64,000 nt of DNA from Escherichia coli (GCF_003018235.1 NZ_CP027437.1), one strand, 5' to 3'. Numbered from the stretch's first letter, positions 48,478 to 53,064 are shown. The notes: generated by a model from the letters alone, not told the origin. Numbers and translations: made by a program.

Positions 48478-49869
48478 TTACCTGTTTGCCCATAATTTCA
48501 GCATCGCTTTGTGCTCTTCCTTAAGCATAATCCGCGAGCGTCTGGCTCGAATATAACTAATCGCTTCATCAACGGTTTTACAATGTCCGTAACATAACAG
48601 CCATGCCGCCACTACCAGCGCACTGCGCGATAATCCCAATGCGCAATGGACCAGAACGCTGCCTTGCTCTTCGCGTAATGTTTCCAACATCGCCACGGCC
48701 TGTCGGAGCTCCCCCTCTTCCGGAACCACCAGATCCAACATCGGTACACAAAAATAGAGTCGCTCTTTTGTCGCTCGTCCGCGAGGGAATTCAAAGGTGA
48801 CGTCCAGAACCGCATTCTGTGCCGGAATATGTCGTGGAAACGCCCCTAAATAAACACCAGCCGTAATTTTGCTTACCGGCTCCAGGCGAAGGCAAAACCA
48901 ACGCATAGACAGCCACATCCCGATGCGCCATGGCAATGTCAGCCAGTAAACGGCGGGCGGGAGTTTCCCTTGACTATCTTTACCTGTTGTTATCGCGCCA
49001 AGCCCACCGTACCCACGGCCAATAATGAGTAGCGATAATACTGGCCAACATAACCAGACTGACCACCATAACTGAAGCATTATCATTAGCTCCATCAACA
49101 CAATGCACGAGCACGCGCCTGCGACATATGGCAGTGCTATTTTGATTCGACGTTGATCAGGTTTCTGATAATTCCAACGACGGTCTACGGGCACCATCCA
49201 GTCAATTAACATACCTACCGCCAGCCCTGTGATGACATCAATAAAATGATGCTGCCAGGTCGTCAGCGTCGAAATGGCGATGAGTAAAAACCATCCGCCG
49301 CAGACTTTACGCCACCTCACAGCCAGATGCTGACGAAAGTGACGCCAAAGTAGCCAGCAGAGAATAATATGCAGCGAAGGAGACTGGTTATAAGGCAGAT
49401 CAAACAATTCAAGTTGCGAAAATAACCATCCTGTCACCCCACTCACTTCAGGACGGATAAAACTAAACTTCAGCGGGTAGAGAAAAAAACCGCAGCAGGC
49501 CATTACCGTTGCCAGAATAAGCCGGTGGACAAGTCGGCGCTGTTCGAATGTCGAGCTACAAACGAACAGCGAAAATCCATATAAAAGATCCAGACTCCAG
49601 TAAGGAACAATAGTCCAGGGAAGAAAAGGGATCGCCGTTTCCCAACCGAATACCTGACTGGGGATATCATGGTTGTTAAGATCCTGAGTCGCGGTGAACT
49701 GATTAAGAAACCCATAGGTGAAGAAGAAAAACGGGGCCAGCAACAATAACCAGCCAGCTCCTTGTAGCAATACGTTCCGGCGTTCAGTTATCACGACGCA
49801 CCGCCATCGAAACCGTAAAAATGCCCCACTCATCAATCCGTTGTGTGCATTTATCAAATCCGGCATCAT
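48478..49869 (-). CDS. ynbD: membrane-anchored dual-specificity phosphatase-like protein YnbD (start uncertain)
   Basis: Hydrophobic N-terminal part plus C-terminal HCALGLSRS phosphatase P-loop; track ORF overlaps ynbC by about 86 nt, so the true start may be internal. Confidence 0.8.
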
Positions 49870-51484
49870 GCACGAGTGAATCCATCTCCCCTTGAGAACG
49901 CACGCGCATTACCCACGGTTTACCATCTTTATGACTGGTTAACACCCCGGCAATCAGCTCCAGTTGTGGGTGCCACGGCTGCCCGGTGTAGATGAGAATG
50001 CCACCCGGTTCGATGGCATTGGCAAGACCTGCGAGGGAGTTTTTTACCTGCTCATTTTCGGGAAAAAGCTCATACAGGCCAGAGACAATCGCCAGCGTAG
50101 GCCGCGGAGTTAACGTGCTGAGTTCTGCCGGATTAAACGCATCGCCCTGTTCAAAACGCGCCCGACCAGACATTCCCCGTTGGGCAATCATCTCTTGCCC
50201 TTGTGCAACATTTACCTCACTGTAATCACGTAACAAAATATCGCTTACGGCAGGCTCGTTTACCAGCGCATCCAGTACATAGCGCCCATGCCCTGCGGCA
50301 ATGTCAACCACGCGGACGGCTAAACCTTTGGCGTGGAGATCGGCAACGGCTTGTTTAATCAGCATTTGTAAATGGGTTTTGCGCTGGCGAATACCGCGCC
50401 AGCCAACACTGTTCAGGTAGATTTTGTCAATTAAGCGCCCGAATGCGTTACTGCCTTGCGGTTGATTTTGATAGACATAATCCAGGGAACTGCCTGAATC
50501 AAAGCCGGTGCTCATTCCGAGATGCAGGCCCGCAGAGTGCGCCCCGAACAATTTCATCGCCTTTCGCATAAAGCGATACGCCAAATCAACCGGCGATAAT
50601 GGCACGGGTCCACCTGAAAGGAGCCGCCAGCGATCCGCTGATGGTCCAGTGCGGTCTTCATGCTGATAATCAAATTTTTGCGACTTGTTAGCATATAAAC
50701 GACTAATAAAGCTTTGCATTTTTTCAAATGCCTGCGCCCTGTTCTCTTCACCCAACGTGTCGTGATAAAAGCCTGGCAGCAGATGCAGCTCTTTCAGAGG
50801 GCTACGTAATCTCTGATAAAAATCAATCTGCGGTTGGCGATGCACCACATAGTCATCGCCTGATATCAGAAGTTGCGTGGGGAGCGTAATCGCCGCCGCA
50901 TCGCTAACAATACGTTCAGACGTTTTATAGAGATCGAGCAAGATATTGACGGCAATCGCCCGTGTGATCAGCGGATCATTATTGAAACTCGCCACCCGTT
51001 GCCGATCGTGGGTCAGATAACGCCCTTTCACATAGGAATTAATAAAAAACAGACCACGCAGACGATGCCATAACGCCAGTCCAGGACGTGCCAGCGGCAC
51101 ATACAATTTAACCTTAAAGGCCGGAGATACCAGCACTAGTCCGCGAATAGCAGGCGCATAATCATGAACCCATGTGGCAACCATCACTGCGCCGACGCTT
51201 TGCGCGATCACAACCACCTCTTCCAGTCCGACCTGGCTGTCGCTGGCAGCAAAACGGACAAATTCATCGACATCCTGCACTGAACGCGCAAGAGACGGAC
51301 TATAACCACGCGGCCCCGAAGTTTGTCCATGCCCTCGGGCATCCCATGCATAAAAAGCAGTATCTGGCATCGCCAGTTCATCAACGATATGTTGTAGACG
51401 ACCAGAATGTTCATGACCGCGATGAAATAAGACGATGACCTTTTTCGCCCCTGGCTGTAAAGTGGGCCAGTGCCGATAAAACAA
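49784..51484 (-). CDS. ynbC: YnbC, alpha/beta hydrolase fused to SAM-dependent methyltransferase-like domain
   Basis: 566-codon ORF from a TTG start; N-terminal [13 protein letters not shown] oxyanion-hole region. Confidence 0.8.
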
Positions 51485-51556
51485 CGCTGTATTATCACTG
51501 GTGGTAAAAAAATGTTCCCCAGGGATGCGTGAATTTTACATTTTCTCTATTTTCCT

Positions 51557-52453
51557 TCAGTAACAGCAGTAGCGAATAAAATAAAAAAATACCGGAGCGG
51601 TGAAAATTAATGAGTCAATCCTGTCAAGGAGTCCGCCATGTCCTGGTAATAGTTTTCCACTATCTTTAACACCAATATCTCGTTTGATGGCTGACATCAC
51701 TACATCGCCGCAAAAACCACTAATACCAATTAACAAACCCGCTAATAATGCCTGTAATGTATCTAGCGGTGTCAGCAACGGTCCAATAATCAGTGACGCA
51801 ATCATGGTGGTGATTACGCCGCCCATCAGACCTTCCAATGTTTTTCCCGGGCTGACTTTAGGGACCACTTTTCTTCTGCCGCAGGATTTTCCCCATAAAT
51901 ACTGTGCAATATCGTTTGACTCGGTTAATGCCAAAAGAAATAACACCAGTAACGCCCCGCCCTGGATATTTGTGGTTGGCAACATTAATAACCAGGCGGC
52001 ATGACTCAAGGCGAAAACGGTCATTATCCAGCCACAAAAAATGGCGCTCACGGTATGCAGAAAACCGGAGGGGTCACCCACTAAAACTCGCCAGGTGGCT
52101 AATATCAGAAACCCAGCCAAAGGTATAAATAACAGAAACAGCTCAAAGCAATTAAAACCGATAAGCAAATAGTTAAGAGGAATACCCCAATATAACCAAC
52201 GCGGAAAATGTACAGATATAAGCGTACAATATTCTTTCAATGCCAGAAAACTTATCAGCGCAAAAAACGTCAACGTCATCCAGCGTGGACCTGAAATCAC
52301 CATTGAAAAACAAATGACGATGCCCCACCAAGTACGAATACGTAATGTAACTTCATCCCCTTTTCTCTCCGGTAACCGCCATACCAGAAAACGGTTTATC
52401 AGCGTTGCTAAAATTAACAACGCGAAAAGTGTTGCCAGAGATTTTTCCAGCAT
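51557..52453 (-). CDS. ynbB: CDP-diglyceride synthetase-like membrane protein YnbB
   Basis: 298-aa multi-TM ORF resembling CdsA. Confidence 0.8.
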   Translation of the reverse strand: MLEKSLATLFALLILATLINRFLVWRLPERKGDEVTLRIRTWWGIVICFSMVISGPRWMTLTFFALISFLALKEYCTLISVHFPRWLYWGIPLNYLLIGFNCFELFLLFIPLAGFLILATWRVLVGDPSGFLHTVSAIFCGWIMTVFALSHAAWLLMLPTTNIQGGALLVLFLLALTESNDIAQYLWGKSCGRRKVVPKVSPGKTLEGLMGGVITTMIASLIIGPLLTPLDTLQALLAGLLIGISGFCGDVVMSAIKRDIGVKDSGKLLPGHGGLLDRIDSLIFTAPVFFYFIRYCCY

Positions 52454-53064
52454 TATCTTTCAGCGCTCATAAGAAGCACACTCCGACAACGATTAATCGC
52501 AGTCCAGAGAAGCAGAATTGAAGCAATGCTCCATAAAAGATTATTCCATTGCATCCATTGTGGATAAATGGCAATGGCCAGCCCCCACAAACCAAATATT
52601 AACGCGCGATCGCTTTTGCCAAATGGACCGACATAACTACGAATACCGTTAATCGTCTGCGCGAGTAAACCGCAAAACTCGGTCAATATGGTGCAAAATA
52701 ACATGAGTATCACGAGTGATGCATTACTTTCAGGTAAAAATAAAAACGGTAAATAGAGCGCAATATCGGAAATAACATCGCCAGTCTCATTCAAAATCGC
52801 CCCAAGACGTGTTTGCTGATTGCACTCACGCGCCAACATGCCATCCAGCGCATTGAGTGCCATACGAATAAAAAGCACGATGGGCAATAGCAGAAACATG
52901 CCAGGATATGGCACCAACGCCAACAACAAACCGGTGAGAAGAGAAAGTGCCAAAGCGGCAAGTGTGATCTGATTTGCAGACACTTGCAGCTTATGAAGCC
53001 AAAACATCGTCGGCCTTAACAGCGACTGAAAGAGCAGTTTTATCTGGTAGAGCGTCATTATCAA
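52453..53064 (-). CDS. ynbA: CDP-alcohol phosphatidyltransferase-family membrane protein YnbA
   Basis: 203-aa ORF with NALDGMLAR...G...D motif region; start overlaps ynbB. Confidence 0.8.
   Translation of the reverse strand: MIMTLYQIKLLFQSLLRPTMFWLHKLQVSANQITLAALALSLLTGLLLALVPYPGMFLLLPIVLFIRMALNALDGMLARECNQQTRLGAILNETGDVISDIALYLPFLFLPESNASLVILMLFCTILTEFCGLLAQTINGIRSYVGPFGKSDRALIFGLWGLAIAIYPQWMQWNNLLWSIASILLLWTAINRCRSVLLMSAER

Follow-up and report, generated by a model that had tools for sequence, protein, structure and literature searches.

The ynbABCD operon of Escherichia coli, a known orphan, compared with a six-gene proteobacterial lipid cassette

The inositol-lipid cluster BT_1522-BT_1526 of Bacteroides thetaiotaomicron combines a CDP-diacylglycerol-dependent phosphatidylinositol-phosphate synthase, which uses a phosphorylated alcohol (PIPS; BT_1523), a phosphatase specific to the phosphorylated lipid (BT_1525) and an Aur1-like PAP2 headgroup transferase (BT_1522) (PMC9246714). 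Here we compare that cluster and other described lipid enzymes with ynbABCD, a four-gene operon at positions 48478-53064 of a 64,000-nucleotide stretch of an E. coli genome (GCF_003018235.1, NZ_CP027437.1; the whole stretch is called the window below). One product, YnbB, makes CDP-diacylglycerol in vitro and in chimera analysis, as summarised in a review (PMC7018664). MPIase, a glycolipid that aids the integration of membrane proteins, rises when YnbB is overproduced and is restored by it on depletion of CdsA; cold is also reported to induce ynbB along with MPIase (PMC6362211, PMC7018664, PMC11413397). YnbB does not sustain bulk phospholipid synthesis (PMC6362211, PMC7018664), deletion of ynbB alone leaves growth normal and MPIase not significantly changed, and the MPIase dependence reported for YnbB is as a backup only (PMC6362211). 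YnbD is recognised as the fourth E. coli PAP2 protein, with no known function according to the authors; its knockout grows normally, and overexpressed YnbD fails to complement either an undecaprenyl-pyrophosphate-phosphatase-deficient strain or a thermosensitive pgpA pgpB pgpC strain (PMC7413402), which makes a simple second phosphatidylglycerol (PG) pathway unlikely. Polyphosphate distribution and the location of a group II intron protein both changed on insertion of a transposon in ynbC, which may also have had polar effects on the genes downstream (PMC2435150), and the ynbA promoter is repressed by H-NS and activated by BglJ-RcsB (PMC3950696).

We consider it somewhat probable that ynbABCD is the remnant of a six-gene cassette that builds, and then processes, a minor glycerophospholipid from CDP-diacylglycerol. 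This reading starts from the published CDP-diacylglycerol synthesis by YnbB, from the conservation of catalytic motifs and from gene linkage; the remaining steps are argued conditionally below. The operon is a known orphan, now better defined, rather than a discovery. What is new relative to the annotations and literature that we found is the incompleteness of the four-gene unit as a cassette, the variant active site of YnbA and the nature of YnbD.

The window holds the real ynbA-ynbB-ynbC-ynbD operon as annotated in E. coli K-12. As the first-pass annotation of the window had proposed, it has four genes; these are co-directional reading frames on the minus strand and correspond to the same RefSeq genes (named ynbA, ynbB, ynbC and ynbD) in a layout identical to that of K-12. 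Pfam bore out every domain that had been assigned to the four products (PF01066 in YnbA, PF01148 in YnbB, PF12146 and PF12147 in YnbC, and PF00782 in YnbD). The genes are:

52453-53058, minus strand: ynbA, ATG start, 201 amino acids (aa), PF01066, CDP-alcohol phosphatidyltransferase resembling phosphatidylinositol-phosphate (PIP) synthase
51557-52453, minus strand: ynbB, 298 aa, PF01148 (E 4e-69), CdsA paralogue
49784-51541 in the K-12 frame, minus strand: ynbC, 585 aa in K-12, PF12146 and PF12147
48478-49770, minus strand: ynbD, TTG start, 430 aa as in K-12, PAP2-type membrane domain and PF00782

Across Proteobacteria these genes travel in a larger set. YnbC homologues fall into about 408 clusters at 50% identity (E <= 1e-30), and a locus search with a 12-sequence alignment as query gave 80 loci on one-genome-per-species contigs from Enterobacterales, Neisseriales, many Betaproteobacteria, Pseudomonas, Bradyrhizobium, Shinella and Acetobacteraceae. 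In nearly all of them ynbA, ynbC and ynbD are adjacent, usually with ynbB, and two further genes are each found in 65 of the 80: one for an acyltransferase of 206-213 aa with an HX4D motif, and one, directly after ynbD, for a membrane protein of 130-150 aa. Four gene orders are seen (AT, acyltransferase; SM, small membrane protein):

A-B-AT-C-D-SM: Citrobacter, Serratia, Hafnia, Salmonella bongori
A-C-D-SM-AT-B: Betaproteobacteria, Pseudomonas, Alphaproteobacteria
A-C-D-SM, no linked ynbB: Providencia, Proteus, Xenorhabdus, Morganella
A-B-C-D: E. coli

The acyltransferase matches PF01553 (E 3.5e-24), PlsC (5kym, E 1e-10) and the acyltransferase region of the acyl-ACP-phospholipid O-acyltransferase model NF006386 (E 2e-20), and is of the lysophospholipid type; the small membrane protein gave no family match. 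All-against-all clustering of the 80 neighbourhoods returned no conserved gene beyond the six, so no dedicated precursor enzyme travels with the cassette. Where a Citrobacter locus (L007) has the acyltransferase gene, at 7367-8008, the ynbB-ynbC gap of E. coli (window 51542-51556) retains 16 nt; the same locus encodes the small membrane protein at 11031-11432, and the ynbD-azoR gap of E. coli (48425-48477) measures 53 bp. No homologue of either protein was detected by tblastn anywhere in the 64-kb window (all matches E > 0.3). The idea of a self-contained lipid pathway, put forward in the first-pass annotation, stands in part: the genes do behave as one lipid-metabolic unit, as judged from A-C-D adjacency at about 80 loci, a YnbA-YnbC fusion and a conserved surrounding made up of lipid enzymes alone, but the E. 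coli set is incomplete, being the six-gene cassette minus the acyltransferase and the small membrane protein.

Distant relatives of the cassette support functional coupling of the ynb genes. A metagenomic 807-aa protein (locus L088, 1210-3633) fuses a YnbA-like transferase to a YnbC hydrolase/methyltransferase, and YnbD, the acyltransferase and YnbB are encoded downstream of it. In an unrelated lineage, at 41% identity, just A, B, C and D stay together, without the acyltransferase, and a third variant joins a YnbC-like protein to a patatin, a short-chain dehydrogenase/reductase (SDR), a CdsA-like protein and a 592-aa protein with PAP2_3 and dual-specificity phosphatase (DSP) domains; this PAP2-DSP fusion is retained even in divergent clusters. 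In S. bongori (L087, 549-9456) the six ynb genes lie between ydbH-ynbE-ydbL and azoR-hrpA. The ydbH-ynbE-ydbL genes are implicated in phospholipid transport to the outer membrane. The window has ydbD upstream of ynbA, and in K-12, by b-number, about 25 genes separate ydbH-ynbE-ydbL from ynbA. Citrobacter sp. Cu233 carries two cassette copies (L008 and L021), with YnbC 77% and 66% identical to that of E. coli; the second looks degraded, with ynbA shortened, the acyltransferase truncated and ynbD split into two open reading frames (ORFs).

YnbA belongs to the CDP-alcohol phosphatidyltransferases (PF01066, 40.4 bits against a cutoff of 22, E 4.9e-10), and PIPS-type families outscore PgsA for it, with a PIPS as the best match in the PDB, which supports the reading proposed here. 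Its best NCBIfam models are archaetidylinositol-phosphate synthase (E 4e-20) and PIP synthase (E 6e-13), with PgsA at E 3e-6. All equivalog scores lie below cutoff: 72.5 bits against 180 for NF040950, 48.9 against 170 for NF045883, and 27.7 against 109 for the PgsA model TIGR00560. A profile of 40 YnbA orthologues has Mycobacterium tuberculosis PgsA1 as its top PDB match (E 7e-12), followed by M. kansasii PIPS, AF2299 and choline phosphotransferases; no chain named PgsA or cardiolipin synthase appeared at E <= 0.01. Instead of the four-Asp signature D1xxD2GxxAR...GxxxD3xxxD4, YnbA has N69xxD72GxxAR...G86xxxN90xxxD94. N69 and N90 are invariant in all 40 orthologues and are kept in the YnbA-YnbC fusion protein and in the 41%-identity lineage, whereas the PDB relatives have Asp at both positions. 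Mapped through the alignment of the YnbA profile with the PDB, the residues of PgsA1, with roles taken from PMC6506517, correspond to YnbA as follows:

PgsA1 D68 (D1, Mg-1 ligand): YnbA N69
PgsA1 D71 (D2, Mg-1 ligand): YnbA D72
PgsA1 D89 (D3, Mg-1 ligand, bridges to Mg-2): YnbA N90
PgsA1 D93 (D4, proposed catalytic base): YnbA D94
PgsA1 R94 (critical for inositol phosphate): YnbA V95, in DVISD
PgsA1 S132 (phosphate pocket): YnbA G130
PgsA1 R152, R155 and R195 (phosphate pocket): YnbA K148, R151 and R190, all invariant in the family

YnbA therefore has the basic residues of the phosphate pocket and lacks the Arg of inositol-phosphate users. Nor is an inositol-phosphate synthase linked to it, since within 8 kb the 80 loci have no conserved genes besides the six of the cassette, and we know of no such synthase in E. 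coli. We rejected a plain PIP-synthase identity, which fails on Arg94, on the four-Asp signature, on the family cutoffs and on the linked synthase. The acceptor would instead be anionic and probably phosphorylated, held in a PIPS-like pocket, and other than inositol phosphate; the metal site is predicted to be less negative than in known family members, and YnbA may work like a PIP synthase without being one.

YnbB contains a CdsA domain (PF01148, 233.7 bits, E 4e-69), and its C-terminal catalytic signature, SAIKRD...GHGG.LDR.DS, is conserved in 63 orthologues. With the CdsA equivalog NF008635 it scores 111 where the cutoff is 385, which marks YnbB as a paralogue and not CdsA itself.

YnbC joins two enzymes (PF12146, E 2e-68; PF12147, E 3.5e-152, 506 bits). 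The hydrolase half has the monoacylglycerol-lipase (MGL) fold, and the triad Ser115/Asp230/His260 is present in all ynb-type YnbC sequences; the other half keeps the S-adenosylmethionine (SAM) motifs D413-x-A-A-G417-x-G419 and D439 of a class I SAM methyltransferase. Literature searches on the gene cluster and on PF12147 or YnbC found no functional assignment. In seven distant homologues the nucleophile has been replaced (Ser to Gly, Tyr or Asn) and the methyltransferase motifs persist. Distant homologues at 31-34% identity (loci L004-L006 and L093, with proteins P0174 and P0189) come after a gene cluster encoding acyl-carrier protein (ACP), ketosynthase, MaoC dehydratase, ketoreductase and Metal_hydrol. 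P0174, which has lost the Ser, adjoins the ACP, ketosynthase, dehydratase and ketoreductase genes, and P0189 sits in the same type of cluster yet retains the Ser; P0160, which has also lost it, lies on a short contig that holds no ACP- or ketosynthase-type neighbours. A single E. coli record, P0001, is an 889-aa protein with CdsA-type and YnbC domains, which points to ynbB and ynbC having been joined in that strain by read-through or a frameshift.

YnbD had been described as a membrane-anchored dual-specificity phosphatase. The phosphatase is there, but the membrane part is a conserved catalytic PAP2-type domain and no plain anchor. The protein consists of an N-terminal eight-helix PAP2-type membrane domain followed by a C-terminal DSP (PF00782, E 5e-26). 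The N-terminal part matches PAP2_3 and PAP2 only weakly (PAP2_3 20.9 against a cutoff of 27); it nevertheless has the PAP2 helical-bundle fold, with SMSr and Aur1 as nearest relatives, and carries the catalytic motifs PSLH134 (C2) and QHH175xxD178 (C3), of which H134, H174, H175 and D178 are invariant in 45 orthologues. In the same 45 orthologues the phosphatase residues D346 (the general acid), C376, R382 and S383 are invariant, and C376x5R382 forms the P-loop; PTPMT1 is among the top structural matches of this domain and has the highest identity, 27%. The PAP2 site is predicted to be periplasmic and the phosphatase cytoplasmic.

Put together, these properties suggest the following pathway. 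YnbB would provide CDP-diacylglycerol as a private supply for YnbA, to which it is translationally coupled, and YnbA would join this to a common anionic, probably phosphorylated alcohol other than inositol phosphate, yielding a phosphatidyl-X-phosphate. The cytoplasmic DSP domain of YnbD may then strip the terminal phosphate, a job of the kind done by PTPMT1 or a PIP phosphatase, and its periplasm-facing domain, related to sphingomyelin synthase (SMS) and Aur1, could, on the outer side of the inner membrane, either move the phospho-headgroup to another acceptor, freeing diacylglycerol, or hydrolyse it. YnbC would deacylate a monoacyl lipid and methylate a group, and in taxa other than E. coli the partner acyltransferase would re-acylate, so that lipase, methyltransferase and acyltransferase together may remodel the lipid or the acceptor. 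The input of YnbB to MPIase would be a side or backup activity. A bolder version, which we offer tentatively and think rather doubtful in full, is that Proteobacteria, among them E. coli, S. bongori and Pseudomonas, have an undescribed lipid system in which the Asn/Asn CDP-alcohol transferase makes a new phosphatidyl-X-phosphate, a two-faced YnbD dephosphorylates it in the cytoplasm and, through its SMS-like domain, passes the phospho-headgroup to an envelope acceptor in the periplasm, and the diacylglycerol set free returns via YnbB in a private cycle.

Several points weigh against a working pathway of this kind. No product of it has been observed, no precursor enzyme for the alcohol substrate of YnbA is linked to the cassette, and the E. 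coli copy, without two cassette genes, perhaps makes nothing. With Asn in place of D1 and D3, both Mg-1 ligands in PgsA1, the chemistry of YnbA may differ or its activity be weak, and the Arg94 equivalent that marks inositol-phosphate users is Val in the alignment. No methyl acceptor of YnbC could be identified. For YnbD, the PAP2-out/DSP-in topology comes from helix counting, the PAP2 domain could be either a hydrolase or a transferase, and the P-loop HCALGLSRS resembles those of protein DUSPs, lacking what we take to be the basic residues of lipid phosphatases.

Among 5426 complete E. coli genomes, 4622 have a match to the operon and 804 (about 15%) have none; at least 80% of it is present in 4280 (79%), and in about 340 more the match falls short of 80%. 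One partial form matches in two pieces that cover 65% of the query, beneath which no phosphatidate cytidylyltransferase is listed; another is a 292-bp remnant of ynbD. Five operon matches lie on plasmids. Between the window and K-12 the ratio of nonsynonymous to synonymous substitution rates (dN/dS) is 0.19-0.23 for the four ynb genes, against 0.047 for azoR and 0.018 for hrpA, so selection still acts on ynbABCD but is much relaxed (4- to 12-fold above azoR and hrpA). The E. coli operon is a silenced, trimmed and dispensable copy of the six-gene cassette, with the genes for the acyltransferase and the small membrane protein lost.

The window also carries an altered ynbC allele. Codon 2 (51536-51538) is TAA where K-12 has GAA, and the same ATG-TAA occurs in strain ETEC1738; since the K-12 ATG runs straight into the stop, the first canonical in-frame start is TTG at 51484 (566 aa). 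For ETEC1738, PGAP places the start at a non-canonical ATC, codon 6, to give 580 aa. Starting at TTG-51484 would cost the YnbC lipase its strand beta-1 (residues 8-13 in the model) and Asp16, a residue shared by 54 of 56 homologues. An exact match to the 81-mer that spans the stop was found in only 4 of the 5426 complete genomes, all among the nearest relatives of the window; this is a lower bound for the stop allele, because the search reported near-exact matches only and even the K-12 allele, one mismatch away, went unreported. Apart from this codon all four reading frames are intact, and all catalytic residues are kept.

It is conceivable, but in our judgement unlikely, that the E. coli operon is left over from evolution and yields no distinct lipid, with YnbB alone keeping a marginal backup use. 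Such a leftover would fit the loss of two genes that S. bongori, Citrobacter and most carriers possess, the H-NS-silenced promoter (PMC3950696), the absence of the operon from 15% of complete genomes and its partial deletion in others, the raised dN/dS relative to the flanking azoR and hrpA, the stop at codon 2 of ynbC in the window, and the normal growth of ynbB and ynbD knockouts (PMC6362211, PMC7413402). It does not fit frames that are otherwise intact with every catalytic residue kept, a dN/dS well below 1, the A/B/C/D set without acyltransferase in an unrelated lineage, or the retention of at least 80% of the operon by 79% of genomes.

We think it quite improbable that the operon as a whole is devoted to making MPIase, or a related glycolipid with pyrophosphate-linked diacylglycerol. 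On that proposal YnbB would make CDP-diacylglycerol, YnbA would react it with a sugar-1-phosphate, such as N-acetylglucosamine-1-phosphate (GlcNAc-1-P), to give GlcNAc-PP-diacylglycerol, and YnbD would recycle or trim the pyrophosphate lipid. Points in its favour are the action of PAP2 enzymes on lipid pyrophosphates, the ability of some DSP-fold enzymes to hydrolyse phosphoanhydrides, the translational coupling of ynbA and ynbB, and the two Asn residues in place of metal-binding Asp, since they would make the site of YnbA less negative and could suit a phosphate nucleophile. The effects of YnbB overproduction on MPIase, including its restoration on CdsA depletion, and the cold co-induction point the same way (PMC6362211, PMC7018664, PMC11413397), but ynbB deletion leaves MPIase not significantly changed, and the authors give the second step to CdsA/YnbB (PMC6362211). 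Although MPIase is reportedly essential, the operon is absent from 804 of 5426 complete E. coli genomes; the Morganellaceae keep A-C-D and the small membrane protein without a linked ynbB; and the scheme has no role for the lipase, the methyltransferase or the acyltransferase. Our literature search, which was of incomplete coverage, returned no data on MPIase dependence for ynbA, ynbC or ynbD.

The mitochondrial set Tam41, Crd1, PTPMT1, Cld1 and tafazzin matches the ynb enzymes class by class. A second, mitochondrial-type route of PG/cardiolipin synthesis and remodelling (a CDP-diacylglycerol synthase, a CDP-alcohol transferase acting as phosphatidylglycerol-phosphate (PGP) or cardiolipin synthase, a PTPMT1-like PGP phosphatase, a deacylase and a transacylase) is nonetheless very unlikely and was rejected as the lead, for although PTPMT1 is the structural match of highest identity to the DSP domain and the cassette acyltransferase falls in PF01553, overexpressed YnbD does not complement the pgpA pgpB pgpC strain (PMC7413402), YnbA scores poorly against PgsA (E 3e-6, against 4e-20 for the inositol-phosphate type) and draws no chain named PgsA or cardiolipin synthase from the PDB at E <= 0.01, and the methyltransferase and the SMS-like domain are left unexplained.

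The surroundings and junctions of the operon complete the picture. It is flanked by azoR and hrpA on one side and by ydbD on the other. Its sequence shares 96.1% identity with K-12 and no more than 98.8% with any complete genome. Two intergenic features were delimited:

53059-53228, minus strand: AT-rich ydbD-ynbA intergenic region, which holds the ynbA promoter (PMC3950696)
48439-48468, no strand: inverted repeat between the convergent ynbD and azoR, probably a bidirectional terminator

An AAGGA Shine-Dalgarno sequence precedes the ynbA ATG at 53058; the TTG at 53064, in frame upstream, is a mechanical ORF start and gave the first-pass annotation its end coordinate. The ynbA/ynbB overlap noted there is real and amounts to one nucleotide, shared by the ynbA stop and the ynbB start (TAATG), and the TTG start of ynbD lies 13 nt past the ynbC stop. 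The arms of the ynbD-azoR hairpin pair perfectly over 11 bp around an 8-nt loop, and the RNA folds at -24.9 kcal/mol (z = -4.9 relative to shuffled sequences). The hairpin probably acts as a terminator in both directions, a role that is predicted from its structure since no T-run follows it on the ynbD strand. Rfam gave zero family matches in window positions 47500-53700, and a scan for consensus promoters and terminators found 5 promoter-like sites where 7.7 are expected by chance, with nothing informative at 53059-53228. GC content steps at the ynbB/ynbC junction, from 43-45% in ydbD, ynbA and ynbB (51557-55541) to 49-51% in ynbC and ynbD (48478-51541), and the low values fit H-NS silencing; the Citrobacter cassette is even, at 55-58%. 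The step falls where the acyltransferase gene is missing.

The phospholipid map of E. coli is usually deemed complete, yet conserved and catalytically intact lipid enzymes have no product assigned, in E. coli as in S. bongori, Citrobacter, Providencia, Pseudomonas, Cupriavidus and Variovorax. The view that the product is not established held for YnbA, YnbC and YnbD, for which a literature search of incomplete coverage found none, an absence of evidence only; it did not hold for YnbB, whose product, CDP-diacylglycerol feeding MPIase, is published (PMC6362211, PMC7018664). Definition of the full six-gene unit places this published role in context, as that of one member of a larger module, and the four-gene version in E. 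coli may be why nothing was seen. The analysis also narrows the acceptor of YnbA to a common anionic alcohol other than inositol phosphate and draws attention to a well-studied active site in a conserved Asn/Asn form.

To our knowledge, the Proteobacteria that host ynb are not sphingolipid producers. The PAP2 branch of sphingomyelin synthase and Aur1 (PDB 8ijr, 9ivc) shares only 12-14% identity with the N-domain of YnbD, in which a [K/R]-x4-R-P stretch similar to the C1 motif of phosphatases is retained and whose fusion to a predicted cytoplasmic DSP has no counterpart there; a transferase role for YnbD is putative. The YnbC lipase differs from monoacylglycerol lipases such as M. tuberculosis Rv0183 and human MGLL in being fused to the PF12147 methyltransferase. 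With E. coli CdsA, YnbB shares the catalytic C-terminal half and the ability to make CDP-diacylglycerol in vitro and to sustain MPIase (PMC6362211); its N-terminal half is unrelated, it does not carry out bulk phospholipid synthesis, and its partners in the operon, YnbA, YnbC and YnbD, have no known MPIase link. Mycobacterial PgsA1 (PDB 6h53; PMC6506517) has the same length, six-helix layout, D2/D4 Asp and pocket residues as YnbA, which differs in having Asn for D68 and D89, Val for R94 and Gly for S132, and in NCBIfam scores far below the cutoffs. BT_1522-BT_1526 is the closest known logic to the proposed ynb pathway, in that YnbA, the C-domain of YnbD and its N-domain would supply the same three types of activity. 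The ynb genes depart from it in that no inositol-phosphate synthase is linked to them and that YnbA has no Arg94 equivalent and has Asn at D1 and D3; moreover, the ynb phosphatase is a DSP fused to PAP2, not a PgpA-type enzyme, and the ynb cassette adds to this scheme a CdsA paralogue, an MGL/methyltransferase fusion, an acyltransferase and a small membrane protein.

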